Shown in pieces: positions 1 through 18,051 of a stretch of 58,183 bases of DNA. This DNA comes from a virus. Positions within the stretch are counted from its first letter, which is position 1, and each line of letters starts with the position of its first letter. The stretch covers positions 1 to 58,183 of IMG/VR virus record IMGVR_UViG_3300034069_000553. One strand, 5' to 3'. Under the pieces are notes generated by a model, which saw only the letters and a program-made list of their open reading frames with translations, had not been told where the DNA came from and made no database searches. The position numbers and the translations under genes were made by a program.

Positions 1-28
1 AGCAGCCGGCGGCTGGCGGCGGCGCGGC
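1..28. repeat. terminal direct repeat, copy 1 (circular-assembly overlap or short terminal redundancy)
   Basis: nt 1-28 agcagccggcggctggcggcggcgcggc are identical to 58156-58183. Confidence 0.95.
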
Positions 29-3000
29 GGCGGACTTCGCCGCGCGCACGGCGCAGGTGGAGAGCGGCGGGAACGCGGCGGCGCGCAACTCGCAGTCGTC
101 GGCGGCTGGCGCGCATCAGTTCGTCAGCAAGACGTGGCTGGGGCTGATGCGTAAGCACCGCGCCAAACAGACGGCGGGAATGAGCGACGAGCAAGTGCTG
201 GCGCTCCGCGACAATCCGATCGTGTCGGCGCAGATGGCCGGCATCTACGCACAGGAGAATGCGCGCGCGCTGACCAAGCGCGGCCACAAGGCCGACAACG
301 GCACGCTGTACCTGTCGCACTTCTTGGGCTCGGGCGGCGCCAACGCAGTGCTGGACGCCAACCCGAACACGCCCGTCGAGCAAATCCTTGAGCCAGGCCA
401 GATCGCGGCGAACAAGTCGGTGCTGGCGGGCAAGACGGCCGGGCAGGTGATTGCTTGGGCATACGGGAAAATGAATACGCAGCCCGGTGCCGCGCCGTCT
501 TCGCGCCCCGTTCCGGAAGATGCTTCGGAGATCGAAACGCCCGAGCGGAAGGATCGCGAGACGGTCAGCGAGTTCATGTCGCGCGTGCTCGGCGACGAGA
601 ACGAGGACGGCACCGGGCTTGAACAAGCGGACGATTCCGGCGATGATGCTGGTTCCGGCGCTGCACCGTCTGTAACCCCGGAGTCGGCGGCCAGCAGCGT
701 GGCGCCGGCTCCTTCGCCACCAGCCGCACCAGCGCCGCGCGCACCAACCGGCGATCTGTACGAGCAAGCCCGCGCCCTTGTCACCGAAGCTGGCAAGGGT
801 TCGCCCTCCTACATCGGCCGCAAGCTGGGTATCCCGCAGTCCGAAGCAACCGCATTGCTCGATCGTATGGCGAACAATGGCGTGGTGCAGCCCCGCGACG
901 GGGCCGGCTCCTATCCTTTGGTGTCTTCTGCCGCTGCCGCCCCGGCGCAGGCAGAAACGGGCAAGCGCATTACCGGCTTGCGCTCGTTTGTCCATGGCTC
1001 TCCACGCGAGGACCTGACGCTTGCCGACATTACCACCGACCCGCGCGATACCAAGCAGGGATCAGGAAAGAAGAGCAAGTTCGGCGGCTTCTACGTCAGC
1101 GACACGAAGGACATCGCGCACGCCGAGGGCTATGCGGGTATGGGCCAAGGCGGCAAGGGCGCGGTCTATGACGTAAACCTGAAGCCGGATGCCGTGGTCG
1201 AAGAGATCGGCGGCGACATCACCCGGTTCAGCGCCGACCGCATCGCCGGGTTCCGCGCGCGCGGCGTCGATGTGGTGCGCGGCCGCGATCCCCGCGGCCG
1301 TACCGAAACAGTGGTCATCAACAAGGAAGCAATCGAGAGCCTTGCTCGCCGTGCTGGTGATCCCGTCGCCACCGCCGCGCCGAAAGCTCCGGTACAGGAT
1401 CGCAGCGTTGCGATCGTCATGGACCCGACCGCCGGCACCACGACGACCGTGCCTGTCGGGGTACAAGAGCGCGATCAGCTGGCGGCACCCACAGGCAATC
1501 TTCGCGAGCGCGCCGAGCGCGTAGGGCTGACTCGGACTCCGGTGGAAAGCACCGATGCGTTTGTTGGACGGGTGGAGGCGGCCGAAGCAACGGCCCAGGC
1601 AACGGCCACCGTCGAGGACATGCCATCCGGCAAGTCGATCATCATCAAGGGCGCGACCGACGCGCAGCTCGCCGCGGTCAAGGCCGCGATTCCAAAGGCG
1701 CAGCCCCTGACGCCGAAGAGCGGCGGTGTGGTCTATAGCAAGAAGTACGAGGCAGAAGTGCGCGCTGCACTTGCCAGCGATATCGACCCGCCCAAGGCGG
1801 AGAAGCCTGTCGAGCAGCGCCGCGCCGATATGCGTGTCAGCGACGAGCTGCCCGGCGGCATGAAGGTGGAAGACGCGGCGCGGGTTGCGCGCGAGCGGGA
1901 TAAGGCGCCGCGCCAAGTGGCAGAGGCGGAGCCAGAAGAGCAAAAGCCTGAGACGGTGACAGAACCTGTCACCCCTCCCTCCGCTGACGACAAGCCTGAG
2001 TCCCCAAAGGACGGCAAAGCCAAGGGGTACGGTGCCGGTAACAAGTTCTTCAGCGCCGATGCGGCCGAGCGCGCTCGCGCCACGCTGCGCGAGAAGATGC
2101 GGAACCTCAACAGCGGGTTCGACCCTGAGACGGCCGCCGCCGGTCTGACGCTGATGGGGTTCCACATCGAGGCGGGCGCGCGATCGTTCATCGCCGCAGC
2201 CAAGGCGGTGTCGGCTGATCTCGGCGTGTCTCCGTCACAGCTCAAGGGTTCGTTGCGCTCGTGGTATTCCAGCGCGCAGGCGTGGTTCGAGGACAACAGC
2301 GTAAGCACTGACGGCATGGATGACGCCATGACTGTTCGGGCACTCTTGGGCAGCATTCAGGATTGGGGTAGTAGCGTCACTACGGATGGCGCGCAGGAGA
2401 CGGATGATGGACTTCAAGGGACCGTATCTGGAAGCGATGCGCGATCAGGCGCCCGCGATGTTCAATCGGCTGAACCGAACGGGAGCGCTGGACAAGTTCG
2501 TGCAGGATCGGAGCGTGGAAGCGCACGAGCTGTACGAGAAGCTGACGAAAGGCGAGGCGCGGACGCAGAGCGGAGTGGTGATCGACCCGCAAGCCCGGCA
2601 GAACGCGGAGGAACAGGTGCGAGCCGTGATGCTGGACTTCCCGAGCCCGCTAACGGACGGCCAGCAACCAGCCGGGTAGCGGTGACAAACTACGTCATCG
2701 AGCCCGGCGCGCTGGCTGAATCGCGCGGGCCGAAGGCGAAGGCGCGCGACAACATTGCCGCGATCGAGACTGCGAAGCGCTTGGCCGCCGAGGGCCGGCC
2801 GGCGATCGGCGAAGAGCAGGCGGTGCTGGCGCGCTATGTCGGCTGGGGCGGTCTGAAGAACGTGTTTCCCGATGGGCAGGGAACGTTCGGCAAGGGGTTC
2901 GAGGACATTGGCCGCCAGCTCAAGGAGCTGCTGACCGCAGAAGAATACGACACGGCGCGCCGGTCGATCCAATATGCGCATTACACGAGCGAGGATATCG

Positions 3001-6000
3001 TCCGTGCCATGTGGAGCGGCGCGCAGGCGCTGGGCTTCAAGGGCGGCACCGTCTTTGAGCCTGGCATGGGCACCGGGAACTTCGTCGGCATGATGCCACG
3101 GGAGTTGGGCGCTGCCACGCGCTACAGCGGAATTGAGATGGACGGCATCACCGCTTCCATCGCCCGCGCGCTGTATCCGCAGAGCGGGGTGCAGCTGGCG
3201 GACTACACTCGCTACGATGCGCCGCGCGATGCGTTCGACCTTGTGATCGGCAACCCGCCGTTCTCCGAAACGGTGGTCAAGGCGGACGCGGCCTACAAGG
3301 CGCAGGGGTTCGTGCTGCACGATTACTTCTTTGCCAAGAGCCTCGACAGCGTAAAGCCCGGCGGCCTGCTGATGTTCGTCACCAGCGCCGGCACCATGAA
3401 CAAGCTGAACACCAAGGCGCGCGAGTATCTGGCCGACCGTGCCGATCTCGTGGGTGCTATTCGCCTGCCAGGCGACGCCTTCGAGGAAAACGCAGGCACG
3501 AGCGTGACGACCGATATCGTGGTTCTGCGCAAGCGGGCGGCGGGCGAGGCGCGTGGCGATGCCTCGTGGACCGAGACGACGGCGATGGACCTACGGAACC
3601 GTGACGGTGGCACCAGCACCGGCAATGTCAGCCGCTACTTCGCCGACAACCCGGAGCAGGTGCTCGGCGAACAGGGCATGTTCGACACCCTTGTTGCGGG
3701 CGAACGCTATGCCGTGCGCCGCGATCGTGGCGACAACCAGCCTTTCGCCGAGAAGCTGGCCGCGGCGATGGATCGGATCACCACCCGCACGATCGCCGAC
3801 ACCGCGCCCACGGCGCAAGCTCCCGCCGATCTCGACTTCAGCAGCGACGAGAAGAAGAGCGGCACGTTCTATCTCGGGGCAGACGGCACGCTGTTCCAGC
3901 AGCAAGGAAGTGTCGGGCGCCCGGTTGCCGGCCGGGCCAAGGGCGAGAAGGGCGGCATTGCCGCGGGCGATCAGGAGAAGATCAAGCAACTCGTTCCGAT
4001 CCGGGATTCCTTGCGCGCTATCTACCGCGCCGACCTTTCGCAGAACACAAAGGCGGCGGACGAAGCACGCGCCGAACTGAACGCCGCATACGATGCGTTC
4101 GTGAAGAAGCATGGCCCAATCAACAAGGGCGTGTTCACGCGGCGGAAGCCGTCTCGCGTTCAGATCGAGAGCGCACGGCGCAAGGCGCGGGAGGAAGCGC
4201 GCGCGCGCGGCTTCGAGTGGAGCGACGGCACTTTCGACGCTGAGCGCATGTTCGATGAAGGCGCGACCGTCGCCCAAGTCGCGGCATCGCGTGAGGCCGC
4301 GCGCGAGGAATATGCGCGCCGCGGCGATGCTTGGAGCGATGGCACCTTCGATCCCACCGATGTGCCCGACACGATCATCGAGAAGCGTCCCAACATCGAC
4401 GCCTTCATGGACGACCCGGAGTCCTACCGGCTGCGCTCCATCGAGCACTACAACGATGCGACCGGCGAGGCGGCCAAGGGGCCGGTGTTCACGCAGAACG
4501 TGGTTTCGCGCAAGGCGGCGCCCACCATCAAGAACGCGGTTGATGCGCTTTACCATTCGCTGAACCTGACGGGGCGTGTGGACATCGACATGATTGCGCG
4601 CGCCGCCGGGATCAGTCCGTCCGACGCCATTGACCAGCTTGCGGGCCAGATTTTCCAGACGCCTGAAGGAGGATGGGAGCCGGCCGCAAAGTACCTGTCG
4701 GGTAACGTGCGCCAGAAGCTGCTGGCGGCAGAGCAGGCCGCAGACCGTGACCCGGCGTTCCGCGGCAACGTGGACGCGCTGCGCGCAGCCATCCCCCGCG
4801 ATCTTGGCAAGACGGACGTGCGCGCCACGCTGGGCATGAACTGGATTGACGCCAGCTATGTGCAGAAGTTCGGCACCGAGGCGCTGGGGCTCGCCAACAT
4901 GGCGGTGGCCTATCAGCCGGTGCTCGCCACTTGGATCGTCACCGGCGATAGCTACTCGGCGGCTTCCCGTTCGACTTGGGGTACCGATCGCCGCTCTGCG
5001 GTGGAACTGGTGGACGACGCGCTGAACGGCAAGAGCCCGAAAATCTACGACACGTTCCGCAACGCCGATGGCGGCACTTCGTCGGTGCTCAACCAAGAAG
5101 CGACGCAGGCCGCAACGGACAAGCTGCTCGCGATCAAGGAGAAGTTCCGCGAGTGGATTTGGTCGGACGATGCGCGCGCCACGAAACTGCTGCGCCGATA
5201 CAACGACAGTTTCAACAACCTGGTCGCGCCGGAATATGACGGCTCTTACCTGACCACACCGGGCATCTATGCCGGTTGGAGCTGGCGCCCGCACCAGACG
5301 GCGGTGATCGCGCGGATCATTCAAGAGGGCAACACCTACATGGCTCACGCCGTTGGCGCGGGCAAAACCTCCGCGATGATCGGCGCGGGCATGGAGATGA
5401 AGCGGCTGGGGCTGGTCAACAAGCCAATGTACGTGGTGCCGAACCACATGCTCGCGCAGTTCACCAAGGAGTTCTACGAGCAGTATCCCACCGCGCGCAT
5501 CATGGTGGCCGACGACGATCGCAACTTCGTGACCGATCGCCGCAAGCAGTTCATCTCGGACATGGCGTTGGCCGATCTCGATGCGGTCATCATCAAGCAC
5601 TCCGCATTCGGCCTGCTGCCGCTCTCGCACGAGTTTCAGGAGAAGATGCTGTCGGAGCATCTCAATGAGCTGCGTGACACGCTGGCGGCCATCAAGGCGG
5701 ACAAGGGCGGGGACAACCGCATCACCCGCCGCCGCGTAGAGCAGCAGATCGAGCAGGCCGAACAGCGCTACCTCGCCGCGACGGACAGCAAGCGGAAGGA
5801 CCAGACCTTCACGTTCGAGGAAACCGGCGTCGATTTCCTGTTCGTTGACGAGGCTCACCTGTTCCGCAAACTGGACTTCGCCACCGGACGCGGCGACGTG
5901 AAGGGCATCGATCCGCAAGGCTCCATGCGCTCGATGGACCTGTTCCTGAAGACGCGCCTCCTTGAGCAGCGCCGGCCAGGCCGCAGCCATGTGCTCGCGT

Positions 6001-9000
6001 CGGGTACCGCCATCACGAACACAATGGCCGAGCTGTATTCGATCAGCCGCTACCTCCAGCCAGAGACGCTGGCCGAGCGCGGCATTGACCGTTTTGACGC
6101 TTGGGCAAGCGGCTTCGGCGACACCATTACCGATCTCGAACCGACTGCCGGCGGCACTTACAAGCCGGTGACCCGGTTCAGCCAGTTCGTGAACGTGCCA
6201 GAGTTGTCGGCGATGGTGCGCCAGATCATGGACGTGGTGACGCCCGAGCAGCTCGAACAGTATGTCGTGCGCCCGGCCGTGCGTAACCACATGGTCGTCG
6301 TGCCGGAATCCTCCGGTCAGGCTGCTTACCGCGCCGAACTTCAGGCGCGCATGACAGCAATCGAGAACCGCAAGGGCAAGCCCAACAAGGGTGACGATAT
6401 CATGCTGTCCGTCATCAACGACGGGCGCAACGCGGCGATCGACATGCGGCTCGTGGACCCCTCGCACGAGGAAGAGCACACGAAGCTGATGGAGGCGATC
6501 GAGAACGTGCATCGCGTCTGGGGGGAAACCAAGCGTCACCCGTTCTACGAAATCGAAAAGGGAGCGGACGGCGCGCGCGGGCGCTACCGGGACGAGCCTG
6601 CCTTCTATGCGCCGGCGGCGCAGATGGTGTTCGCCAGCCGCGGCGTGGGCGCGGATCGCAAGTTCAACGTCCATCGGTTCATCAAGGACGAGCTGGTCAA
6701 GCGAGGGGTTCCCGCCGATCAGATCGTGATCTTCAACGCGCTCAAGAACGACGTGGCAAAGCAGCGCGTGTTCAACGACATGAAGGAGGGCAAGGTCCGC
6801 ATCCTGCTGGGCTCGGTGGACAAGATGGGCACCGGCGTGAACGCGCAGCGGCTGCTGGTGGCCAACCACAACATGGACCCGGAATGGCTCCCCTCGTCGG
6901 ACGAGCAGCGTAATGGCCGCATCATCCGCCAGGGCAACATGAACAAGTCGGTCGATATCTACAATTATTCGACCAAGGGCACATACGACTCCGCGATGTG
7001 GGGCATGATGGGTCGCAAGGCGAAGTTCATCGAGGGGTTCTTCCGGGGCGATCCCACGCTGCGCGACATGGAAGACTTGGGCGAAGCGTCGAAGTACGAG
7101 CAGGCCAAGGCGCTGACCACGCGCGACCCGCGCATTCTTGTGCTGACCGAGGCCAAGCAGGAACTGGAAAAGGAACTGCGCCGACAGAGCGCCTACGAAA
7201 GCGAGATCGCAACTGCGCGCGCGGAAGCGGCCAACTCCGAGCTCTGGGCCAACCGCTTGGAGCAGAGCATCGCACACGAGAAGGCGGACGTTGCGCAGGG
7301 GCAGGATATTTCCGGCGATGCGTTCCGCGCAAAGGTTGGCGACGAAGAGTTCACCGAGCGCGCCCTTTTCCAAAAGGCGCTGGACACGGCCATGGAGCCG
7401 GCCGAGCGCGAGGGGGTCGAGGTTGTCGGCGAGATCGGCGGTTTCGAGCTGGCACGCTCCACGTTCCCGGTCACCGACTTCGAGGAAGGGCGCAAGCGCG
7501 TCACCATGAAGTCGGAACTGGTGCTCCTGCTGAACGGCGACAGCCAGGCGGGGGAGCGGCGATACAAGAAAATCGCGAAGACAAGTGCAGCGGCCAGCGC
7601 GGCCGACTTCATCCGCAAGCTGGATTCGGTGGTCGCCGACACGCAGCAGCGCATCGATCAGCAACGTCAGCGTGCGGCCGAGTTCGCCGAGCGCGGCGCC
7701 ACGACCGCGGCGTACAAGGGCGAGGCTCGCATTGCCGAACTAGAGCAGCAGGTCGCCAGCATCGAAAAGGAACTGCGCGACGAAACGGCAGCGGCCGAAG
7801 CGTCGAAGCAAGGTGCAGCACAGCAGAAGTCGGAAGAGGGCGACAAGCCCAAATATTCGCTGATGAGCACGGACGAGCCGGCCTACCGCAGTGGCGACGG
7901 CAATCCCGGCGACTATGACGCCGGCAATCTTGCAGCTGATCGCGCCAACTTGGTGGACCGGCTGAAAGCGCTGGGGATCAGCGACAAGGTAACACTGCGC
8001 GTCGTTGAGCTGATCCAGAACGAGCCGCGCTATGCCGGGCAATACTGGCGCCGGGTAATCACCATCGCTACGCAGTCGATGGCAGAGGACACGGCGTTCA
8101 CCCTCGATCACGAGGCGGTTCATGCGATGAAGGAACTGGGCCTGTTCCGTGATGCGGAGTGGACCGCGCTGAAGAAGGATGCTTTGGCGGACACGGCCAT
8201 GATGGACAACATTCGCCGTCGCTATGCCAACATGGGTCTGAGCGAAGAAGACCTGATCGAAGAGGCTGTCGCCGATCGCTTCGCCCGCTGGCGTCAAGGT
8301 CGTGAGGAATCGGGCTTCGCGCGGGCGGCGTTCCAGCGCATCATGGACTTGCTCTCGGCTCTGCGCCGCCTGTTCAGCAAGGGGCCGACCGGCGGCGGCA
8401 CGTTCCGCGCAATGGAGAGCGGCAAAATCGGGTCGCGCTCCGATCTCGACAACAATGCCGGGCCGCGATTTGCGGTCACCGATTCACAGCAAAGTGCGGA
8501 TTTCAAGGCTTGGTTTGGTGACAGTAAAGTGACCGATGCGAACGGCAATCCTTTAGTGGTGTATCATGGGACGAATGCCGACGTGGCGATTTTTGGTAAC
8601 GTTGGCGGCAATTTTCCCGGCCAATCGCAAGGGTTTTATTTCTCCGACAGCCCGCGCCGCGCCGGCATGTATGCTGACCGAGACAATGCCATGGAGCGAT
8701 GGAATCCGGCTTCCAGATACGCCAAGCCGGTGGTCAGCGGGGCGAACATCACCCCCGTATATCTTTCGATCCAGAACCCGCGGGCGATTGTTGGCGAGTG
8801 GGCATCAGCGGAAGCATTCGCTGATGCCAATGGCGGAGAAGTGGTGCGCAAGGCGCGCGAGGATGGGCACGATGGAGTGATCGTCACCAACACCGCGTAC
8901 GATGATCCTATGCACGTCTATGTTGCCTTCAATCCTGCGCAGGTAAAATCTGCAATTGGCAATTCTGGGACGTTCGACAGCCGCAACCCTGACATTCGTT

Positions 9001-11717
9001 ATAGCATTCCGAACCCGGCCAGCGGCACCGGGCCAAACCCCGGCGTCGTGGATCGCCTGACCGCTGGCATCGGCCGCTTGATGGGCAACGGCACCGCAAT
9101 TAGCGAACGCGTGGATGCTTGGCGCACCGATCTTCAGGACAGGATGCTGCCCCTCCTGCGCACGCAACAGCGTGTCGAGCTGCAATCTGGCGTGCCGCTG
9201 CCCGAGACGATGAACCCATATCTTGCCGAAGAGCTGATGAGCGGCAAGGTCGGCGCGCGGCTGGAGCGCTTGCACGAAGAATTGGTGCGTCCCATGTTCG
9301 ACGCCATCAAGGCCGAAGGGCTGACCGTCGAAGAGGTAGAATCCTACCTGTACGCGCGCCACGCGCCCGAGCGAAACGAGCGCATCTCCGAGATCAACCC
9401 TGCGTTCGAGCCTGGTTCCGGCTCGGGCATGACAGATGCCGAGGCGCAGGCGATCATGGATGCGGTGGACGCCGAGGGCAAGCGCGCCCAGCTGGACCGC
9501 GTAGCGCGCCATGTCGATGACCTGCTGAAGTTCGCGGTGGAAACCCGCTTGGACTCGGGGCTTATGTCGCAGACCGAGGCAGATGCGTGGGCACTGACCT
9601 ACCAGCACTACGTCCCGCTGCGCGGCAAGGCAGAATTGGACCCGGAAACCGAAGCAGGAGCTGAGCGGCCGCGTCGTGGAAGCGGGATCAACATCCGCGG
9701 CAAGGAATCTCGCACCGCCTTCGGGCGTGCCAGCAAGGCGTCCGATATCCTCGCCTACTCCTTGCTCCAAGCAGAGGAGGCGATCATTCGCGCCGGCACG
9801 AACGACGTGGGGCGCGCCTTCTACGAGATGGCGAAGGCCAATCCCGACGAGGATTTCTGGAAGATCAACAAGGTCACCAGCAAGCCGGTGATCGACAAGA
9901 ACACCGGGATGGTCACCTATGCGATGAACCGGCGCATGGCGGCCGAGGACGAGCCGTACACGGTCAGCCTGAAGATCGACGGCAAGGAACGCCGTGTCAC
10001 CATGAGCAAGACGAACCCGGCCGCAGTGCGGCTGGCGGAGGCTATGCGCAATATGAACGCGACGCACATCGACGGTTTCACGCTGATGCTGTCGAAGCTC
10101 AACCGCTGGCTGTCGGCAACGAACACCACGTTCAATCCCGAGTTCGTCATCACCAACGCCTTTCGTGATATCCAAACGGCGGTGGGAAATCTTCAGGGTT
10201 TCGACGTGCGTGGCCTCACGCGCGGCACGCTGAAGGATTATCGCAAGGCCATGGCTGCATCGGTCAAGGGGTCGTTCGGCAAGGGCTCGGGCGAGTGGGG
10301 CCGGTGGTACGATGAGTTCGTCAGTGAGGGCGGACGGGTGTTCTTCAACAACGTCGAAGACTTGGCCGCCATCCGTCGCCGGATCGAACGCGACTTCCGC
10401 GAAACGACCAATGCAGGCGCGGCGCTTAAGGCGGTGTTGACGCTTGGGCGCTACGTCGATCAGCTCAACACCGGCGTCGAGAATGCTATCCGCCTATCGG
10501 CGTTCAAAAACGCCCGCGAGCGCGGCATGTCGCCGGCCAAGGCGGCCAGCCTTGCCAAGAACCTGACCGTCAACTTCAACCGGCGCGGCAACAAGGCCAC
10601 GCTGATGAACGCGCTGTACCTGTTCTACAACGCCAGCGTGCAGGGCACGGCGCGGCTCTTCCAAGCGCTGGGATCGAAGGGTGGGCGCCGCGTGGCCTAT
10701 GCTGCGGTCGCCCTGGGCGCGTTGCTCGAACTGCTGAACGCCATGCTGTCCGACGACGATGATGACGGCGAGAGCTTCTACGAGAAGATCAGCGACTTCG
10801 AGAAAGAGCGCAACCTGATCCTGATGGTGCCAGGCGGGCGCGGCGAATACATCAAGCTTCCCCTGCCCTACGGCTACAACGTGTTCTATGCGATCGGCCG
10901 CGCGCCGGTGGAGATCGCGCGCACCGGCAAATTCGGCAAGGGCGCGGCCTCGCTGGTGAGCACGATGTTCGATGCGTTCAATCCGGTTGGTGGCACCAAC
11001 TCGCTGCTGAACATGATCTCGCCCACGATCGCCGATCCGCTCGTGGACCTGACACGCAACCGCGATTTCGCCGATCGCCCGATCATGCCCGACGAAAAGG
11101 CATTCGGTCCCAAGACGCCCGACAACCAGCGCTATTGGGGATCGGTCAGCCCGGCATGGCGCATAGTCGCCAGTGGATTGAACAGCGCGAGCGGCGGGGA
11201 TTCCGTCACGCCCGGAGCAATCGACGTGTCGCCCGAGACAATGGAGTACCTGTTCGGTGTGGCGACGGGCGCCGCCGGCAGCTTCTATTCGTCCAAGGTG
11301 ATCGGCACGCCTATGAAGATCATCGGCGGCGATCCAGTCGAAGTTGACGACTTTATGTTGGCCCGCAAGCTCGTTGGCAAAAAGCCGGCTTGGTACGACA
11401 AGGGCGCCTATTTTGATCGGGTCGCCGAGGTGGAGCAAGCCGCCGACTATGCCAAAAAGTATGGTCAGGGCGACGGCGACAAGCAGGCGGACTTCGAGGC
11501 CGCCAACGAGCGCGTGCTGTCGCTGGTGCAGCCGGCCAAGCAGGCGCGCAAGCAGATGACTGCCATCAAGAAGGATCGCCGAGAGATGGATGCCAGGCAC
11601 GAACGCGGCGAGATGACGCGCGCCGAATATCGTGACGAGCGCGCAGAGATAGATGCGCGAGAAAAGGATGTGGTCACCGACTTCAACAGCCAATGGAATG
11701 CGACGCTGAAGGACTAG
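1..11717 (+). CDS. 3' 11.7 kb of the giant multidomain 'polyvalent' virion/ejection protein (whole ORF 13,230 nt, 4,409 codons across the junction)
   Basis: Same frame as 56643..58183 after removing the 28-nt overlap (58,155 is divisible by 3). Many catalytic motifs lie in this frame. Caveat: frame anomaly at 2404-2679. Confidence 0.85.
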   Translation, partial: QPAAGGGAAADFAARTAQVESGGNAAARNSQSSAAGAHQFVSKTWLGLMRKHRAKQTAGMSDEQVLALRDNPIVSAQMAGIYAQENARALTKRGHKADNGTLYLSHFLGSGGANAVLDANPNTPVEQILEPGQIAANKSVLAGKTAGQVIAWAYGKMNTQPGAAPSSRPVPEDASEIETPERKDRETVSEFMSRVLGDENEDGTGLEQADDSGDDAGSGAAPSVTPESAASSVAPAPSPPAAPAPRAPTGDLYEQARALVTEAGKGSPSYIGRKLGIPQSEATALLDRMANNGVVQPRDGAGSYPLVSSAAAAPAQAETGKRITGLRSFVHGSPREDLTLADITTDPRDTKQGSGKKSKFGGFYVSDTKDIAHAEGYAGMGQGGKGAVYDVNLKPDAVVEEIGGDITRFSADRIAGFRARGVDVVRGRDPRGRTETVVINKEAIESLARRAGDPVATAAPKAPVQDRSVAIVMDPTAGTTTTVPVGVQERDQLAAPTGNLRERAERVGLTRTPVESTDAFVGRVEAAEATAQATATVEDMPSGKSIIIKGATDAQLAAVKAAIPKAQPLTPKSGGVVYSKKYEAEVRAALASDIDPPKAEKPVEQRRADMRVSDELPGGMKVEDAARVARERDKAPRQVAEAEPEEQKPETVTEPVTPPSADDKPESPKDGKAKGYGAGNKFFSADAAERARATLREKMRNLNSGFDPETAAAGLTLMGFHIEAGARSFIAAAKAVSADLGVSPSQLKGSLRSWYSSAQAWFEDNSVSTDGMDDAMTVRALLGSIQDWGSSVTTDGAQETDDGLQGTVSGSDARSGARDVQSAEPNGSAGQVRAGSERGSARAVREADERRGADAERSGDRPASPAERGGTGASRDAGLPEPANGRPATSRVAVTNYVIEPGALAESRGPKAKARDNIAAIETAKRLAAEGRPAIGEEQAVLARYVGWGGLKNVFPDGQGTFGKGFEDIGRQLKELLTAEEYDTARRSIQYAHYTSEDIVRAMWSGAQALGFKGGTVFEPGMGTGNFVGMMPRELGAATRYSGIEMDGITASIARALYPQSGVQLADYTRYDAPRDAFDLVIGNPPFSETVVKADAAYKAQGFVLHDYFFAKSLDSVKPGGLLMFVTSAGTMNKLNTKAREYLADRADLVGAIRLPGDAFEENAGTSVTTDIVVLRKRAAGEARGDASWTETTAMDLRNRDGGTSTGNVSRYFADNPEQVLGEQGMFDTLVAGERYAVRRDRGDNQPFAEKLAAAMDRITTRTIADTAPTAQAPADLDFSSDEKKSGTFYLGADGTLFQQQGSVGRPVAGRAKGEKGGIAAGDQEKIKQLVPIRDSLRAIYRADLSQNTKAADEARAELNAAYDAFVKKHGPINKGVFTRRKPSRVQIESARRKAREEARARGFEWSDGTFDAERMFDEGATVAQVAASREAAREEYARRGDAWSDGTFDPTDVPDTIIEKRPNIDAFMDDPESYRLRSIEHYNDATGEAAKGPVFTQNVVSRKAAPTIKNAVDALYHSLNLTGRVDIDMIARAAGISPSDAIDQLAGQIFQTPEGGWEPAAKYLSGNVRQKLLAAEQAADRDPAFRGNVDALRAAIPRDLGKTDVRATLGMNWIDASYVQKFGTEALGLANMAVAYQPVLATWIVTGDSYSAASRSTWGTDRRSAVELVDDALNGKSPKIYDTFRNADGGTSSVLNQEATQAATDKLLAIKEKFREWIWSDDARATKLLRRYNDSFNNLVAPEYDGSYLTTPGIYAGWSWRPHQTAVIARIIQEGNTYMAHAVGAGKTSAMIGAGMEMKRLGLVNKPMYVVPNHMLAQFTKEFYEQYPTARIMVADDDRNFVTDRRKQFISDMALADLDAVIIKHSAFGLLPLSHEFQEKMLSEHLNELRDTLAAIKADKGGDNRITRRRVEQQIEQAEQRYLAATDSKRKDQTFTFEETGVDFLFVDEAHLFRKLDFATGRGDVKGIDPQGSMRSMDLFLKTRLLEQRRPGRSHVLASGTAITNTMAELYSISRYLQPETLAERGIDRFDAWASGFGDTITDLEPTAGGTYKPVTRFSQFVNVPELSAMVRQIMDVVTPEQLEQYVVRPAVRNHMVVVPESSGQAAYRAELQARMTAIENRKGKPNKGDDIMLSVINDGRNAAIDMRLVDPSHEEEHTKLMEAIENVHRVWGETKRHPFYEIEKGADGARGRYRDEPAFYAPAAQMVFASRGVGADRKFNVHRFIKDELVKRGVPADQIVIFNALKNDVAKQRVFNDMKEGKVRILLGSVDKMGTGVNAQRLLVANHNMDPEWLPSSDEQRNGRIIRQGNMNKSVDIYNYSTKGTYDSAMWGMMGRKAKFIEGFFRGDPTLRDMEDLGEASKYEQAKALTTRDPRILVLTEAKQELEKELRRQSAYESEIATARAEAANSELWANRLEQSIAHEKADVAQGQDISGDAFRAKVGDEEFTERALFQKALDTAMEPAEREGVEVVGEIGGFELARSTFPVTDFEEGRKRVTMKSELVLLLNGDSQAGERRYKKIAKTSAAASAADFIRKLDSVVADTQQRIDQQRQRAAEFAERGATTAAYKGEARIAELEQQVASIEKELRDETAAAEASKQGAAQQKSEEGDKPKYSLMSTDEPAYRSGDGNPGDYDAGNLAADRANLVDRLKALGISDKVTLRVVELIQNEPRYAGQYWRRVITIATQSMAEDTAFTLDHEAVHAMKELGLFRDAEWTALKKDALADTAMMDNIRRRYANMGLSEEDLIEEAVADRFARWRQGREESGFARAAFQRIMDLLSALRRLFSKGPTGGGTFRAMESGKIGSRSDLDNNAGPRFAVTDSQQSADFKAWFGDSKVTDANGNPLVVYHGTNADVAIFGNVGGNFPGQSQGFYFSDSPRRAGMYADRDNAMERWNPASRYAKPVVSGANITPVYLSIQNPRAIVGEWASAEAFADANGGEVVRKAREDGHDGVIVTNTAYDDPMHVYVAFNPAQVKSAIGNSGTFDSRNPDIRYSIPNPASGTGPNPGVVDRLTAGIGRLMGNGTAISERVDAWRTDLQDRMLPLLRTQQRVELQSGVPLPETMNPYLAEELMSGKVGARLERLHEELVRPMFDAIKAEGLTVEEVESYLYARHAPERNERISEINPAFEPGSGSGMTDAEAQAIMDAVDAEGKRAQLDRVARHVDDLLKFAVETRLDSGLMSQTEADAWALTYQHYVPLRGKAELDPETEAGAERPRRGSGINIRGKESRTAFGRASKASDILAYSLLQAEEAIIRAGTNDVGRAFYEMAKANPDEDFWKINKVTSKPVIDKNTGMVTYAMNRRMAAEDEPYTVSLKIDGKERRVTMSKTNPAAVRLAEAMRNMNATHIDGFTLMLSKLNRWLSATNTTFNPEFVITNAFRDIQTAVGNLQGFDVRGLTRGTLKDYRKAMAASVKGSFGKGSGEWGRWYDEFVSEGGRVFFNNVEDLAAIRRRIERDFRETTNAGAALKAVLTLGRYVDQLNTGVENAIRLSAFKNARERGMSPAKAASLAKNLTVNFNRRGNKATLMNALYLFYNASVQGTARLFQALGSKGGRRVAYAAVALGALLELLNAMLSDDDDDGESFYEKISDFEKERNLILMVPGGRGEYIKLPLPYGYNVFYAIGRAPVEIARTGKFGKGAASLVSTMFDAFNPVGGTNSLLNMISPTIADPLVDLTRNRDFADRPIMPDEKAFGPKTPDNQRYWGSVSPAWRIVASGLNSASGGDSVTPGAIDVSPETMEYLFGVATGAAGSFYSSKVIGTPMKIIGGDPVEVDDFMLARKLVGKKPAWYDKGAYFDRVAEVEQAADYAKKYGQGDGDKQADFEAANERVLSLVQPAKQARKQMTAIKKDRREMDARHERGEMTRAEYRDERAEIDAREKDVVTDFNSQWNATLKD
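29..470 (+). other. lytic transglycosylase (SLT-like) domain of the giant ORF
   Basis: AQVESGGNAAARNSQSSAAGAHQFVSKTW and YLSHFLGSGGA: family-1 LT pattern with Glu-Ser catalytic dyad. Confidence 0.75.
753..923 (+). other. FtsK-gamma-like winged-helix domain
   Basis: KGSPSYIGRKLGIPQSEATALLDRMANNGVVQPRDGAGSYPLV resembles the FtsK gamma wHTH pattern. Confidence 0.5.
975..1345 (+). other. PARP-like (H-Y-E type) ADP-ribosyltransferase-like domain, copy 1
   Basis: FVHGS ... FGGFYVSDTKDIAHAEGYA ... VYDVNL ... TETVVINKEAI; same motif order as copy 2. Confidence 0.5.
2404..2679 (+). CDS. 91-aa ORF in frame +1 embedded in the giant ORF (possible separate cistron or overprinted gene)
   Basis: AGGAG (2395-2399) lies 4 nt before ATGATG. 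By hand count 74/91 codons end in G/C, versus about 37/93 for the overlapping frame 0. The peptide composition is normal (MMDFKGPYLEAMRDQAPAMFNRLNRTGALDKF...). The TAG stop is followed 2 nt later by a frame-0 GTG. Confidence 0.65.
   Translation: MMDFKGPYLEAMRDQAPAMFNRLNRTGALDKFVQDRSVEAHELYEKLTKGEARTQSGVVIDPQARQNAEEQVRAVMLDFPSPLTDGQQPAG
2682..3560 (+). other. N6-adenine DNA methyltransferase domain
   Basis: Motif I FEPGMGTGNF (3054-3083) and motif IV NPPF (3252-3263). Upstream ARYVGWGGL segment as recalled from DarB-type methylase-helicases. Confidence 0.85.
5270..7050 (+). other. SNF2/DEAD-like superfamily-2 helicase domain
   Basis: Walker A GAGKTS (5355-5372), DEAH (5847-5858), SGTAITN, GTGVNAQ, QRNGRIIRQG (about 6906-6935). 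Confidence 0.9.
7980..8300 (+). other. zincin-like metallopeptidase domain
   Basis: HEAVH at 8109-8123 in the context FTLDHEAVHAMKELG. Confidence 0.6.
8545..8960 (+). other. PARP-like ADP-ribosyltransferase-like domain, copy 2 (ART-PolyVal-like)
   Basis: VVYHGT (YHGT 8562-8573), GFYFSDSPRRAGMYA, VYLSIQNP, HDGVIV, VAFNPAQVKSAIGN, then DIRYS. Codons are conspicuously A/T-ending. Confidence 0.6.
9100..11150 (+). other. PLxRFG-like C-terminal region of polyvalent proteins
   Basis: HYVPLRGK (PLRG 9615-9626), long conserved-looking region, acidic run DDDDDGE and hydrophobic segments near 10680-10780. Confidence 0.5.
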
Positions 11718-12085
11718 ACCTCTCGCAGCTCAATGTCTGGGAACAGGTGGCGGAAGAGCTGGCGGCGCAGGACATAATCTCCTGTCTTGGTCGCCTCGCT
11801 CTTCACGTCCTCCACCACCCTCTGTCCAGCCTCGACATACCCGAAGTCGGGCTTGTACCCGGCGCGCCGGCCATTTTCGTGCATGAGTTGGCGGCCATCG
11901 GGCTTGAACCAATATTGCGGCTCGACCACCAAGTCGCAGATGACGCCGCCCCGCTGCAACAGGTACAACTCGTTGCAGCGATTGGCTTCCTTGCGGCTGG
12001 GGTGACTGTGACCGGCATTGCAAGCGGCGCTCTTGGCGGCATACTTGTGCCGCTTCTTGGGCAGCTTGACCGGGATGCTGGTCAC
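11714..12085 (-). CDS. DUF1064-like (PD-(D/E)XK-type) nuclease family protein
   Basis: KKRHKYAAKS..SRKEANRCNELYLLQRGGVICDL..YKPDFGYVE..VEDVKS. GTG start overlaps the upstream stop (GTGA). Its stop shares a CTAG with the stop of the giant ORF. Confidence 0.6.
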   Translation of the reverse strand: MTSIPVKLPKKRHKYAAKSAACNAGHSHPSRKEANRCNELYLLQRGGVICDLVVEPQYWFKPDGRQLMHENGRRAGYKPDFGYVEAGQRVVEDVKSEATKTGDYVLRRQLFRHLFPDIELREV

Positions 12086-12426
12086 AGAAGATTGCCGATC
12101 GCCGCAGCGGCGCGCTTGCGCTTCTTGATGCCGGCCGCGCGCATCGGCGCGTCGTATCGGTTGTGGCATCTCTGGCAAGCATGGAACATGCGCTCGATGC
12201 TCGTCTCTTCAAGCGGGACGCCATGCTCGTGCGCCAGCGTCAGCACCACCTTGCTGCCGGTGTCTGGGTGCGGCTCGCCATTCAGCGCTGTGCATCGGCC
12301 GCCCTCGTGCCTCTGCCCGCACTTGCCGTCACACTCGCAACGGTTTCCGCTTCTTTCACGCGCCAGTGTGACCATCGCCTTCCACGATTTTGGATAGCGC
12401 GCGCGGTTCTCAGGACGGATTGGCAT
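12082..12426 (-). CDS. HNH endonuclease
   Basis: SGNRCECDGKCGQRHEGGRC..VVLTLAHEHG..ACQRCHNRYD; the internal ATG (MPIRPENR) was chosen over the long track ORF. Confidence 0.75.
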   Translation of the reverse strand: MPIRPENRARYPKSWKAMVTLARERSGNRCECDGKCGQRHEGGRCTALNGEPHPDTGSKVVLTLAHEHGVPLEETSIERMFHACQRCHNRYDAPMRAAGIKKRKRAAAAIGNLL

Positions 12427-12568
12427 CGCTGATCCTTTTCGCCCATGCGGGAACTGGCTTGCCTTCCAATCGGCAACGCTCGCGAACCGCAGCGGCGGCC
12501 TTCTCCTGCCCCGCGTCCAGCCGGCGCTGCTCAATGTCGAGCGCGCGATCATCGCACCAGTATGCCAT
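12410..12568 (-). CDS. hypothetical small protein (52 aa)
   Basis: ATG-initiated ORF bridging two nuclease genes and overlapping both neighbours; below the track cutoff. Confidence 0.3.
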   Translation of the reverse strand: MAYWCDDRALDIEQRRLDAGQEKAAAAVRERCRLEGKPVPAWAKRISDANPS

Positions 12569-12956
12569 CGCAGGATTCCTTCCATAGCCTGTCCGCCACT
12601 GCGAGCAGGTTTATTCCATATTTCAGCCAGAACCCGCCATGCCCCAGTCCCTCGACCGAAACCGGGTCCGCAGCTTTGGGGTCGTGCACCTTCTGGTGGT
12701 GAATCGGACACAGCGGCACGATGCGCTGGTGTGATCGAGCGATCCGTCCGCCGGTAATGCGCGCGGTGACGTGGTGGATCGTCGCCGTGCGGCCGCACAC
12801 GAGGCACGGCAGGGCCGCCATCCGATCCATGTGGCGCTTCTCGTCGGCGGTGGGGGCGGCGCCAGCCTTCGGCTTAACTCGCACCTGCTGGACGCGCTCT
12901 GGTGCTTTCCGGCGTGGCTTCTCGCGCTTGGCGGCCAAGGCAGTGCGGCGAATCAT
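12549..12956 (-). CDS. HNH-like nuclease (DUF968/Ref-like pattern)
   Basis: LPCLVCGRTATIHHV...VPLCPIHHQKVH; ATGA overlap with the upstream gene. Confidence 0.5.
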   Translation of the reverse strand: MIRRTALAAKREKPRRKAPERVQQVRVKPKAGAAPTADEKRHMDRMAALPCLVCGRTATIHHVTARITGGRIARSHQRIVPLCPIHHQKVHDPKAADPVSVEGLGHGGFWLKYGINLLAVADRLWKESCDGILVR

Positions 12957-13225
12957 TGTCGGGCCTCTTCCTGATTATAGGCGGCCAGCACCTCGAAGAA
13001 CTGCTCTGGCGTCAGGTCGCCCTTGGCTTGGTTGCAGGTCAGGCACGCGGCCACGAGATTGGTGTTGCCGCGCAGGCCACCCAGCGATTTTGGCGCGAGG
13101 TGTTCGAGCGTGGCCGATCGCGGCTCCTTCGTGCCTGGCGGCGTCATGCGGCGACGGCAATAGTAGCAGAGGCCGTTCTGATGCTGGATCAGGTTGTCTC
13201 GCAGGTTTTGCAAGATCGGGCTCAC
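12953..13225 (-). CDS. HNH endonuclease
   Basis: CYYCRRRM...TLEHLAPKSLGG...NLVAACLTCNQAKG. Confidence 0.8.
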   Translation of the reverse strand: MSPILQNLRDNLIQHQNGLCYYCRRRMTPPGTKEPRSATLEHLAPKSLGGLRGNTNLVAACLTCNQAKGDLTPEQFFEVLAAYNQEEARQ

Positions 13226-13365
13226 CGCCTACGTTCCATCCTGATCGGATTTCGCCGCTGCCAAGCGCGCAACTTCTCCATCTCGCTGCGCTCTTCGGCA
13301 GTCTGATAGCGAGGCGCTACCCGCAGCAGTTCGGCGATGCGCTTATCGACGCGCATCCGCTGCAT
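13222..13365 (-). CDS. hypothetical small protein (47 aa)
   Basis: ATG 13365; its stop overlaps the next GTG start (GTGA). Confidence 0.35.
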   Translation of the reverse strand: MQRMRVDKRIAELLRVAPRYQTAEERSEMEKLRAWQRRNPIRMERRR

Positions 13366-13385
13366 CTCCGTGCCAATGTCGAGCG

Positions 13386-14030
13386 TCACGCGAGCGGCAG
13401 CAGCAAAGCCGCCCCTGCCTTCCGCGCCGCCAGCTCGGCACGCGCACCTTCCGGGTCAGGGTCTTGCTCGCACATCGATTCAAGCGCCGGCAGTCCGGTG
13501 GCGATGCTGTGTTCGACTTCCGCGCGCATGGCCCGGCGGCCTTCCGCATACCATTCGAGTGCATGCGGCTGGCCGATATCAAACAGACTGCCGCCGCGCC
13601 CATCATCAAAGCGGCTGTAACGTAGCGTTTGCCAGACCAGCGTGACGCCGGGATTGCGTGTAATCATCATGCCGGCTACCTGCGTGCCGTGCGGCATATC
13701 ATCGCCGTTCACCCGCTTCATCCGCGGCTTGGTCAGGAACGGGCAATGCAGCGCGGAGAAGCGCGCGCATTCCAAATGCGACGGTGGCTCTGAGCTGGTG
13801 CGGTTGATCGCGCACATCGGGCCGATGACGAACGCCTTGATGCGGCCAAGCGCGCCGCCGCACACCCAGCACAACCCCTTGCGGTGCGCCAGCATGATCT
13901 TGCGCCCTTCCGCAATCGGAAAATCGGGCTTGCCGTCGATCCATGCGACGAACCACGGCACCGGGAACCCGCGGTGATCCACGGGCAGACTCCGCATCCG
14001 CGAAGGCAGGTCTGGAAAACGGTTGCTCAT
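13386..14030 (-). CDS. conserved-looking Cys/His-rich phage protein, function unknown
   Basis: FPVPWFVAWIDGKPDF...LCWVCGG...EPPSHLECARFSALHCPF; start ATG 14030 in an ATGA overlap with the upstream gene. Confidence 0.7.
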   Translation of the reverse strand: MSNRFPDLPSRMRSLPVDHRGFPVPWFVAWIDGKPDFPIAEGRKIMLAHRKGLCWVCGGALGRIKAFVIGPMCAINRTSSEPPSHLECARFSALHCPFLTKPRMKRVNGDDMPHGTQVAGMMITRNPGVTLVWQTLRYSRFDDGRGGSLFDIGQPHALEWYAEGRRAMRAEVEHSIATGLPALESMCEQDPDPEGARAELAARKAGAALLLPLA

Positions 14031-14443
14031 AGCCGTGCAATCTCCTCTACTGCTGAAAACCAATCTTCGCGCGTGGACCCGTCCACGATCTTGAGCGCGA
14101 CGCCGATCATGGCCGAATACAGTTCCCTGAAAGCGAACTCGTCCATGTTGCTGAACGCCCAGCTTTTCGGTGCCAAGGCGACCTCCCCCGTGATGGGGTT
14201 GATGATCTCTTCGACGTACCCGGCGCCGATCGTCATCGCCTTGCGCAGCGCTTCCTTGCTGACATATTCGGTATGCGGGAACACCACGTCGAGCAGTATG
14301 AACGCCTTGCGGTGCAGCTTGCCGTTGCGCGGCTTCACCACCTCCGCGCGGAGCGTCTCCCCGATCTTCCAAGATGCGGGGAGGCTTTCGTGGTCAAGCG
14401 CGACGAACCCGGCGGGGGTGCGACGGACCCATATCGTCGCCAC
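14027..14443 (-). CDS. DUF1367-like phage protein
   Basis: KPRNGKLHRKAFILLDVVF...SNMDEFAFRELY; GTG start 1 nt after the ERF stop. Confidence 0.45.
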   Translation of the reverse strand: MATIWVRRTPAGFVALDHESLPASWKIGETLRAEVVKPRNGKLHRKAFILLDVVFPHTEYVSKEALRKAMTIGAGYVEEIINPITGEVALAPKSWAFSNMDEFAFRELYSAMIGVALKIVDGSTREDWFSAVEEIARL

Positions 14444-14444
14444 G

Positions 14445-15164
14445 TCAGAAGCCCGCGTTCGGGTTGACTGCGGTGCGGCGCTTGGTGAATGCCTCCATGA
14501 TGTGCTTGTGGATAAAGGCATCCACCTTCTTCACGCTGTTGATGAGGCGCTTGTTGTCGTCGCGCAGCAGGTCGATGGCATCGTCATCCTTGGCCTTTTC
14601 GACCTGCGCGATCAGGGTGCGTGCCCAATCGCCCCATCCGCCTTCAGGTTCCTCCACCCCTGTCACTGCCGGCCGATGATCGTCCTCCGATGGCCGGCGG
14701 TTGGAATAGAAAGACACCGAGCGATCCTCACCTTCGACGGTCGAGCCGGAATCGTCATCTTCTTCCGTCACGATCGCAAACGCAGCCGACAAGCTGTAGC
14801 GCTTGAAGTAGCTGATGATCGCGCCGATTTCCTGCGGCGTGCCGCTAACGTTCGGCATGGGCACGCCTGCGTCGAGCCATTGCCCGGAACTGTGCAGGAT
14901 GCGGGTAACCATCTGGCCGCCGGCCACGAACTGCACGAACCACAAGCCGTGCTCCGTCAGGATCGGCCGAAGGTGAGCAACGATGCTGTCGAGGGTCGCG
15001 TACTTGAACTTGTAGGAGGGAGGCTGGTAGCTTTCCCCGTTCTGCTTCTGCTTCTGCTTCGGCTTGACCGTCACCTCGCGGTTGCGCTCGACGCCGGTGA
15101 TCTCCGCCTGCGCGGCGGCCAAAGCACCGACCAACTGGTCGATGCTCCCACTGATCGCGTTCAC
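14445..15164 (-). CDS. erf: ERF-family single-strand annealing protein
   Basis: YKFKYATLDSIVAHLRPILTEHGLWFVQ...TRILHSSGQW...GAIISYFKRYSL. Confidence 0.75.
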   Translation of the reverse strand: MNAISGSIDQLVGALAAAQAEITGVERNREVTVKPKQKQKQNGESYQPPSYKFKYATLDSIVAHLRPILTEHGLWFVQFVAGGQMVTRILHSSGQWLDAGVPMPNVSGTPQEIGAIISYFKRYSLSAAFAIVTEEDDDSGSTVEGEDRSVSFYSNRRPSEDDHRPAVTGVEEPEGGWGDWARTLIAQVEKAKDDDAIDLLRDDNKRLINSVKKVDAFIHKHIMEAFTKRRTAVNPNAGF

Positions 15165-16549: not shown

Positions 16550-16559
16550 TGTGTGCCTT

Positions 16560-16766
16560 TCAGGAAGCCGTCACCGGGAGGAATGGAAGCTGGTCCGCCA
16601 GCGCTCGCCCGGCCGCGGCGAGGCGGTACACTCGCCAAGATCGCGTTCGATAAACCCGGAACTCGATCTCGGCCAAGCCAGAGGTGATAAGCGGGACCAT
16701 GTGAAGCAGTGGGCCGGGTGAGCCCACCACTCCACAGTCGCGCAATTGTCGAATCGCGCCGTTCAC
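16560..16766 (-). CDS. hypothetical, possible small winged-helix protein
   Basis: GLAEIEF...RVYRLAAAGRAL pattern; operon context. Confidence 0.35.
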   Translation of the reverse strand: MNGAIRQLRDCGVVGSPGPLLHMVPLITSGLAEIEFRVYRTRSWRVYRLAAAGRALADQLPFLPVTAS

Positions 16767-16767
16767 G

Positions 16768-17076
16768 TCAGGCGTCGAGGACAGGCGGTTCCGGCTGTTC
16801 CGCCGCAGCGATCAGCGCCGTGCTGGTGCCGGCGATAATGAAATCAGCGGTCATCGCATCCGCGACGGCGCGTGCCTGCGCAGCCAGCTCTTCAGCCATG
16901 ATCGCGATTACCTTGTCGCTGGCTTCCTCAGAGAGGCGGATTTCGGTCTTCCCGTGCGCGCCGATGATCTCCACCGTGGCGACCAAGGGCTGATCTTCTA
17001 TTTTCTTTCCCAGACCGTAATAGGTCCCGTTGCCGTGATACCCTTCGCGGGTGACCAAGAGGCGTGCAAGAAACAT
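16768..17076 (-). CDS. hypothetical protein, first gene of the leftward operon
   Basis: ATG 17076 (MFLARLLV...) preceded by a GGCACAC box and a purine-rich SD. Confidence 0.6.
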   Translation of the reverse strand: MFLARLLVTREGYHGNGTYYGLGKKIEDQPLVATVEIIGAHGKTEIRLSEEASDKVIAIMAEELAAQARAVADAMTADFIIAGTSTALIAAAEQPEPPVLDA

Positions 17077-17096
17077 GGCAGTGTCCTTTCTTCGTT

Positions 17097-17103
17097 GTGT
17101 GCC
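17097..17103 (-). promoter_or_regulatory. GGCACAC leader box (instance on the minus strand)
   Basis: minus strand reads GGCACACAACGAAGAAAGGACACTGCC-ATG(17076). Confidence 0.4.
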
Positions 17104-17133
17104 GTGCAATCAGATGCGCCCCAAAATATCGCC

Positions 17134-17150
17134 TGTCAACACGCTTGACA
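17134..17150. promoter_or_regulatory. palindrome TGTCAA-N5-TTGACA: back-to-back -35 hexamers / operator candidate
   Basis: Perfect 6-bp arms in the 103-nt divergent intergenic region. Rightward TTGACA-N16-TATTGC ends 8 nt before ATG 17180. Confidence 0.5.
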
Positions 17151-17179
17151 CAAAAAGGCATGAGCGTATTGCTTGCGAT

Positions 17180-18012: not shown

Positions 18013-18031
18013 TTGCCGATCAAGAACCCCC

Positions 18032-18050
18032 GCCGGGCGGGTCGCCCGGC
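18032..18050 (+). other. GC-rich hairpin (8-bp stem, 3-nt loop) just before a GCACAC box
   Basis: gccgggcg-ggt-cgcccggc, no T-tract. Confidence 0.5.
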
Positions 18051-18051
18051 A

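Follow-up and report, generated by a model that had tools for sequence, protein, structure and literature searches.

The DNA considered here, a window of 58,183 nucleotides (IMG/VR virus record IMGVR_UViG_3300034069_000553), raises the question of whether a reading frame that runs across its two ends encodes one giant protein with several unrelated activities, and of what such a protein would do for the virus. The initial annotation, made from the sequence alone, read across the junction from position 56643 to position 11717 and described a stop-free frame of 4,409 codons with a series of catalytic and binding domains. The reality of the frame, the identity of its domains, its relatives and its probable role are taken up in turn below.

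The circular join and the reading frame

The first 28 bases of the window are identical to bases 58156-58183, a GC-rich overlap, and these identical ends define the window as a circular or circularly permuted assembly with a true circle of 58,155 bp. Once the overlap is trimmed, a frame without stops extends from a stop at 56592 to the TAG at 11715-11717, and the stretch from the ATG at 56643 to that TAG holds exactly the 4,409 codons that had been claimed. The count is obtained because the overlap is trimmed; when the ends are joined untrimmed, the frame ending at the same TAG is broken by a stop at 58024. The coding sequence lies on the plus strand in two parts, with 56643-58155 encoding residues 1-504 plus the first base of codon 505, and 1-11717 supplying the last two bases of codon 505, residues 506-4409 and the TAG (bases 58156-58183 are the duplicate). 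The ATG overlaps the stop of the upstream open reading frame at 55603-56646 as ATGA. The gene makes up 23% of the genome, its GC contents at the three codon positions (0.65, 0.47 and 0.79) are coding-like, and its product has 4,409 residues, a mass of 475.5 kDa and a pI of 5.56.

A frame that depends on a join invites the suspicion of an artefact, either two genes brought together at the contig ends or a false circle closed through a GC-rich, low-complexity 28-mer. The overlap is indeed short (28 bp) and GC-rich, and the join is located within an open reading frame. However, the frame survives with exact trimming only, and three independent giant proteins align across residue 505: P0009 (aligned to residues 413-801, 47.5% identity), P0016 (residues 5-683) and P0001 (residues 468-662, 49% identity). 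Furthermore, the closest relative, P0005, is encoded by an uninterrupted gene; its 56.7-kb contig shares the gene order, and the start codon there again overlaps the upstream stop as ATGA. Because independent giant proteins span the join and the P0005 gene is uninterrupted, the join at residue 505 is, as judged from these alignments, real, and a joining artefact is extremely improbable.

Two minor features of the same region can be recorded here. An antisense open reading frame of 1,357 codons (window 3591-7664, minus strand) did not pass the third-position GC filter and resembles the shadow frames typical of GC-rich DNA. A scan for terminator-like sites detected none at the stop codon of the giant gene, and its three weak sites did not exceed the shuffled expectation.

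Domain architecture of the giant protein

The best characterized part of the protein is a methylase-helicase core. The N6-adenine DNA methyltransferase (residues ~1400-1720; 2685-3647, plus strand) matches M.TaqI at 7e-7 and the Pfam families Eco57I (1e-6; 29.4 bits against a cut-off of 25.3) and N6_Mtase (1e-4), with motif I present as FEPGMGTGNF (residue 1523, 3054-3083) and motif IV as NPPF (residue 1589, 3252-3263). The SF2/SNF2-type helicase (residues 2265-2880; 5280-7127, plus strand) is matched by the Pfam families ResIII, DEAD and Helicase_C and by a DrmD-like NCBIfam model; ResIII passes its cut-off on a tile of the protein (26.5 versus 22.5 bits) and Helicase_C falls just below its own (22.5 versus 23.5). 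Its Walker A motif is GAGKTS (residue 2290, 5355-5372), followed by DEAH (residue 2454, 5847-5858) and a motif VI of QRNGRIIRQG (residue 2807, 6906-6935). P1 DarB is collinear over both domains in three BLASTP blocks (2e-22, 2e-17 and 4e-11), bearing out the likeness to DarB that had been proposed. Judged by its motifs and matches, the methylase is a TaqI/EcoKI-type N6-adenine enzyme, and methylase motifs I and IV together with helicase motifs I, II and VI are intact.

The linker between methylase and helicase contains a 38-residue tandem duplication, in which the sequence around WSDGTFD occurs twice (residues ~1890-1965; 4155-4382, plus strand). The duplication falls in residues 1879-1983, between two BLASTP blocks common with Bcep22 gp75, and the duplicated motif (RG-x-x-WSDGTFD) is absent from all 154 relatives compared. 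In front of the methylase, a conserved domain at residues ~1165-1300 (1980-2387, plus strand) precedes a low-complexity linker (residues ~1300-1400); the domain is common to all DarB-like phage proteins and may correspond to the LPD36-type module that Iyer et al. described (PMC5512222). Of 150 giant relatives, 22 share a small conserved domain at residues ~1033-1105 (1584-1802, plus strand), for which Pfam gives no match. The precomputed annotation of P0005 (positions 10001-22882 of its contig, L007) lists PF28553 WH_1, PF28554 DUF8437 and PF28555 Helicase_dom; these entries are newer than the Pfam copy searched, so that recent models may by now cover parts of the core.

Relatives of the helicase region also occur in bacterial sequences, namely Sphingopyxis flava (L008, 63% identity) and a groundwater gammaproteobacterial MAG (L009, 59%). 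These regions probably lie in prophages and hint at which hosts the lineage infects.

At the other end of the protein, a Gly/Ala-rich module (residues ~28-313; 56724-57581, plus strand) with a hydrophobic helix at residues 178-196 is conserved in about 15 relatives, always near the N-terminus, and has no family match in Pfam. It is followed by an SLT/GH23-like lytic transglycosylase (residues 514-703; 27-596, plus strand), which matches PHROG 4067 at 2.9e-30 and phiKZ gp144 (3bkh) at 3e-6. The motif VESGGN begins at residue 524 (57-74) and includes E525-S526, the catalytic Glu E-S motif, and AGAHQF begins at residue 540; in Pfam the region has no match to the SLT family and a sub-threshold match to PF06737 (19.9 bits against a cut-off of 27). 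Next comes a winged helix of the FtsK-gamma type (PF09397; residues 756-807; 753-908, plus strand), which scores 35.5-38.6 bits against a Pfam cut-off of 30.6 and matches FtsK gamma in the PDB at E 0.016; phmmer found no FtsK-gamma match among 150 zincin-bearing relatives. The possibility that the N-terminal 504 residues represent a fused copy of an upstream Bcep22 virion protein was considered and is not supported; neither tblastn of the upstream open reading frames against the Bcep22 locus nor a BLASTP comparison of the full-length protein with gp75 returned an N-terminal match.

Between the winged helix and the methylase, the initial annotation had placed a PARP-like ADP-ribosyltransferase (ART) domain. 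The region, here called ART1 (residues 830-955; 975-1352, plus strand), proved to be a conserved module, with homologues at 45-53% identity in an IMG/VR contig, a metagenome contig, the giant proteins P0104 and P0147, and Klebsiella phage SopranoGao, but its membership in an ART family could not be demonstrated. The motifs VHGS (residue 835) and GGFYVSD (residue 866) are present, along with H836, Y869, D928 and E940; the candidate Asp, D928, is replaced by Gly in two homologues, and E940 is invariant. An hhalign comparison of a five-sequence ART1 profile with a 22-sequence profile of ART-PolyVal gave 88% probability and an E-value of 2.7e-6, in a register that pairs HGS with HGT, GGFY with GfF and GvDvV with G-DG; a two-sequence ART1 alignment compared with the single sequence of the second ART domain was not significant. 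ART1 itself scores 17 bits, below the ART-PolyVal (PF18760) cut-off of 31.2. When the homologues were searched alone, ART-PolyVal was the top Pfam match in three of four, at a sub-threshold E of 0.009-0.09, and one also matched the diphtheria toxin catalytic domain (Diphtheria_C), likewise sub-threshold at E 0.015. A word-indexed search with ART1 found nothing, and an AlphaFold model from the single sequence had a pLDDT of 36 and was unusable. Because the support consists of sub-threshold Pfam matches and profile-profile comparison, below every curated threshold, ART1 is called no more than ART-like, although by sequence conservation it is real as a module. It is found in 2 of 150 zincin-bearing relatives, and P0068 and P0009 have a ddrB-ParB domain in its place.

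Downstream of the helicase, the region that had been read as one long coiled coil (residues 2881-3125; 7128-7862, plus strand) is indeed helical, but it is composed of two coiled-coil-like stretches around a globular insert of about 100 residues rather than a single one. A crude heptad score flags residues 3081-3108 only, and the region is conserved with Bcep22 gp75 up to residue 3102.

The zincin-like metallopeptidase that follows (residues 3145-3320; 7920-8447, plus strand) contains HEAVH at residue 3208 (8109-8123) and the pair E3258/E3259. An exhaustive HMMER search with a limit of E <= 0.001 recovered 1,324 cluster representatives, almost all of which belong to proteins 1,500-5,500 residues long, and across 151 sequences H3208, E3209, H3212, W3225, E3258 and E3259 are 99-100% conserved. 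The exhaustive search was needed, and a word-indexed search with the same region returned nothing; tblastn of residues 2881-3331 against 50,697 phage records, a scan of IMG/VR with the zincin region, and a comparison of its profile with PDB sequences likewise gave no match. An AlphaFold model from 31 sequences has a mean pLDDT of 82, with the core above 90, and displays a helix, three strands, the HExxH helix and a later helix with the EE pair, which is the zincin core topology described in PMC5512222. Foldseek comparison of the model with the PDB gave nothing at E <= 0.001, and its top matches, at E >= 0.028, are mostly zincins (IrrE/PprI at 0.028, PPEP-3, abylysin, selecase and anthrax lethal factor). 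Among predicted viral structures (BFVD), six match at E <= 0.001, one of them an IrrE-like domain (1.8e-4), and Lethal factor, M48 and SprT entries appear lower in that listing. No match to the Pfam family MPTase-PolyVal was found, and the 31 members have no consistent Pfam family. The call of a zincin is accepted, with the zincin fold as probable, because the HExxH and EE residues are invariant, the model is confident and has zincin topology, and the fold match is to an IrrE-like domain; the family appears to lie outside the Pfam copy used.

Two weaker similarities fall within the limits of the same domain. Residues 3234-3282 (8187-8333) give a sub-threshold Pfam match to the T7 gp14 internal virion protein (E 0.004-0.013), and a similarity in fold to Syn5 gp14 (1.8e-3) is also located there.

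The second ART domain is confirmed by Pfam, where residues 3350-3496 (8535-8975, plus strand) match ART-PolyVal (PF18760) with 87.2 bits against a cut-off of 31.2 (2.3e-24). It carries YHGT (residue 3359) and GFYFSD (residue 3382), and H3360 and D3462, invariant in 22 sequences, match the H-Y-D site of the ARTs described in PMC5512222. The remainder of the protein is a conserved C-terminal module of about 890 residues (residues 3520-4409; 9045-11714, plus strand; PHROGs 14770, 616 and 10691), which includes a hydrophobic helix (residues 4069-4087; 10692-10748, plus strand) and an LPD38 domain (PF18857; residues 4098-4269; 10779-11294, plus strand; 133 bits against a cut-off of 27, 1.4e-38). 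Sixty relatives have the module, and in 56 of them it ends no more than 18 residues from the C-terminus. Many of its residues are invariant. It is present in Bcep22 gp75 (HMM 1e-146), where the motif reads NYVPLKG. By tblastn it is about 35% identical to the ends of a 2,793-residue Stx-phage protein, of Vibrio phage proteins and of the 3,912-residue protein of Ruegeria phage 45A6, and less so, at about 26%, to the Bcep22 group. Its profile matched nothing among PDB sequences.

A PLxRFG-like tail had been proposed for this end of the protein. The YVPLRG motif is there (residue 3708, 9609-9626), with Y3708 and P3710 invariant, L3711 conserved at 98% and G3713 at 93%, but it belongs to the LPD38-containing module; NCBIfam gave no match to a PLxRFG domain, and the tail of SopranoGao, with its FPLARFG motif, matches at E 0.005 on short pieces only. 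As far as sequence comparison goes, this end of the protein is an LPD38 module whose YVPL-G motif is invariant, and a PLxRFG domain could not be demonstrated.

The other assignments of the initial annotation fared well. All of its quoted motifs were found at the expected positions when coordinates were checked by translation; the FtsK-gamma-like winged helix and the second ART-like domain exceed Pfam cut-offs, the HExxH zincin was upheld by conservation and modelling, and profile searches agreed with its methyltransferase, helicase and transglycosylase calls, the last through PHROG with Pfam below threshold.

Relatives and the polyvalent class

Polyvalent proteins were defined as a class by Iyer, Burroughs, Anand, de Souza and Aravind in 2017 (PMC5512222). 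Their survey takes DarB as the archetype of the methylase-SNF2 dyad and ranks the zincin MPTase as the most frequent hub domain; it also lists H-Y-D ARTs, FtsK-type DNA binding, lysozyme or transglycosylase domains and LPD38. The giant protein resembles these proteins in combining unrelated enzymatic domains in one polypeptide within a phage late-gene context; at least seven assigned, biochemically unrelated domains are present, and the gene lies among late/virion genes. It differs in that its zincin lacks a Pfam MPTase-PolyVal match and its ART1 lies under the ART-PolyVal cut-off. Because of the LPD38 and ART-PolyVal hallmarks, a match of 1758 bits to the 'DarB-like antirestriction' PHROG (PHROG 10089), the collinearity with DarB and the blocks common with gp75, the protein very probably belongs to the polyvalent/DarB-like class, as had been suggested. 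Its architecture is one more permutation within a known combinatorial family and not a new class.

P1 DarB and the giant protein have the same core, in which an SF2/SNF2 helicase comes after an adenine methylase of the TaqI/EcoKI type; over this core the two are collinear, with 22-31% identity. However, DarB has 2,255 residues and consists of the core only, and the P1 transglycosylase (Sit), metallopeptidase (DdrB) and other Dar proteins are encoded by separate genes.

'DarB-like' giants are annotated in podophages of Burkholderia, Ralstonia, Erwinia, Serratia, Klebsiella, Agrobacterium and Pseudomonas, and identity to the Ralstonia and Burkholderia proteins is about 41%. Like Bcep22 gp75 and JC1 gp69, from the Lessievirus and Ralstonia podophage groups, the protein has more than 4,000 residues, is encoded by the last gene of the virion block, and has a transglycosylase near the N-terminus, an HExxH between helicase and tail, a methylase-helicase core 36-41% identical, and an LPD38 C-terminal module with YVPL[KR]G. 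The likeness to Bcep22 that had been proposed holds for three large BLASTP blocks shared with gp75 (residues 1156-1878, 1984-3102 and 3541-4271 of the giant protein) but not for the whole, since residues 1-1155 and 3103-3540 are unmatched. Gp75 has LPD3 and lacks ART-PolyVal and FtsK-gamma by Pfam and ART1 by the ART1 HMM; its HExxH region is at best marginally related to the zincin here (E 0.014), and its transglycosylase starts at residue 74 rather than 514.

The metagenomic giants are closer. P0005 (4,293 residues) is 71% identical over residues 1169-3339 and lies in the syntenic contig described above; BLASTP finds no match past residue 3339, so that counterparts of the second ART and the C-terminal module are undetected there. 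P0068 (4,846 residues) aligns to residues 1183-4407 in one segment at 49% identity. The 'PLxRFG protein' of Klebsiella phage SopranoGao (4,369 residues) shares an ART1-type domain (48% identity, HMM 3e-64) and a methylase-helicase core at 34%, but its tail carries a genuine FPLARFG motif, and no homology to the tail of the giant protein could be detected.

Gene context and a proposed role in ejection

Upstream of the giant gene, on the same strand, are genes for a portal-sized protein (PHROG 'head-tail adaptor'), a major head protein and tail proteins. Downstream, a convergent early/recombination module occupies window 12082-16549 on the minus strand, with an HNH endonuclease (12082-12807), an Erf-like annealing protein (14445-15164) and an exonuclease (15161-16549). 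This arrangement makes the giant gene the last of the plus-strand virion block, where the initial annotation had put it. A tape-measure identity, prompted by transglycosylase matches in Rhodobacter phage tape measures, was rejected because no gene of the block follows the giant gene and because some of the phages with which the head protein groups, Bacillus phage Page for example, are podoviruses. Within the tail block, a 527-residue open reading frame (47390-48973) has a C-terminal amidase-like region (PHROG 5107, 3.5e-14) and may, from that match, encode a second virion-associated wall hydrolase.

The virion genes at 33378-56646 have no similarity to Bcep22 (L001), whose remaining virion module is unrelated, and are 32-56% identical to the P0005 contig (L007); the nearest head proteins are those of Pseudoalteromonas phage vB_Pun_Y3 (47%) and Xanthomonas phage DES1. 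On this sequence evidence the genome is mosaic relative to the core of the giant gene. Bcep22-like phages are reported to have a serine tRNA, unlike the window, throughout which ARAGORN found no tRNA genes.

What, then, would the protein do? Building on the observed reading frame, domain identities, intact catalytic motifs, gene position and homologies, we favor, at a probability of about 0.65, a packaged and ejected multi-tool protein that would combine wall cutting, cis adenine methylation, ADP-ribosylation and zincin processing. Packaging, ejection, antirestriction, self-processing and the existence of ART targets would follow by analogy with P1 DarB, with T4 Alt-type logic and with the proteomics of a homologue. 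DarB is a component of the P1 head and protects DNA in cis (PMC5512222), and JC1 gp69, a homologue of 4,515 residues, was detected by mass spectrometry in CsCl-purified virions with 51 unique peptides (PMC9144972). Because the upstream virion genes are unlike those of Bcep22, the JC1/Bcep22 proteomics would transfer through the giant protein alone.

The sequence of events can be pictured as follows. The protein would be made late, packaged into the virion and released into the next host together with the DNA. During ejection, the N-terminal Gly-rich module and the transglycosylase would open the cell wall. The winged helix and the methylase-SNF2 helicase dyad might then ride the incoming DNA and methylate its adenines in cis, driven by the translocase as proposed for P1 DarB, and so blunt restriction, by Type I systems in the case of DarB-like dyads. 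The zincin may cut the polyprotein into working pieces, a self-processing idea put forward in PMC5512222, or may attack host proteins. ART-PolyVal, and probably also the divergent ART1, would ADP-ribosylate host targets, and the invariant C-terminal module would serve particle incorporation, the ejection apparatus or both. This last role is a guess, because the module has no solved or annotated relative.

The same layout can be turned around, so that the protein serves primarily as an essential ejection (internal core) protein, a single-polypeptide counterpart of T7 gp14/15/16 or P22 gp7/16/20, whose end modules build a trans-envelope conduit and whose enzymatic middle is dispensable cargo. 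This proposal overlaps with the packaged multi-tool protein and reverses what is primary. It would account for an N-terminal module and transglycosylase of the kind seen in T7 gp16-type proteins, for the hydrophobic helices near both ends, and for a C-terminal module that stays at or near the end of 56 of 60 relatives while the middle varies; the Stx-phage protein of 2,793 residues, encoded at the end of the tail block and annotated only as LPD5 domain-containing, ends in the same module. Elsewhere in the window, no open reading frame could be recognized as encoding an ejection protein, and the weak T7_gp14 match and the Syn5 gp14 fold match in the zincin point the same way. However, the protein has no homology to any solved ejection protein, the T7_gp14 matches are sub-threshold, and many upstream open reading frames without assignment could encode the true ejection proteins. 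An essential conduit is thus a possible but less probable primary role.

An altogether different proposal is that the protein is not packaged and acts late in the infected cell, for instance by methylating progeny DNA before packaging. Intact methylase and helicase motifs would suit such an enzyme as well, and packaging is not proven by the sequence. However, a purely cytoplasmic late enzyme would have little use for a wall-cutting domain and ART effectors, and with the gene in the virion block and a homologue in JC1 virions, this proposal is very unlikely.

A bolder generalization can be offered as speculation, and we consider it rather doubtful as a whole. The giants would be a modular delivery platform, in which the N-terminal module, the transglycosylase and the ~890-residue C-terminal module form a single-polypeptide ejection chassis, and the middle is a swappable effector array, with ART1 in the ddrB-ParB slot, that is freed by the zincin; ART1 would then be a new ART clade with a host target. 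The new points themselves are modest, namely a divergent ART clade, cassette swapping at the ART1 position and a layout of conserved end modules with a variable middle.

The case contributes a domain map of high clarity for one polyvalent protein, in a lineage whose virion genes are unrelated to those of the Bcep22 group, and it provides evidence that both the C-terminal module and the methylase-helicase core move from one phage lineage to another. Family models and biochemical tests could be developed for two modules that are poorly covered in catalogues, namely ART1 and the HExxH family, which has more than 1,300 cluster representatives. For the phage itself, the giant protein probably decides the survival of incoming DNA against host defences, and therefore bears on host range.
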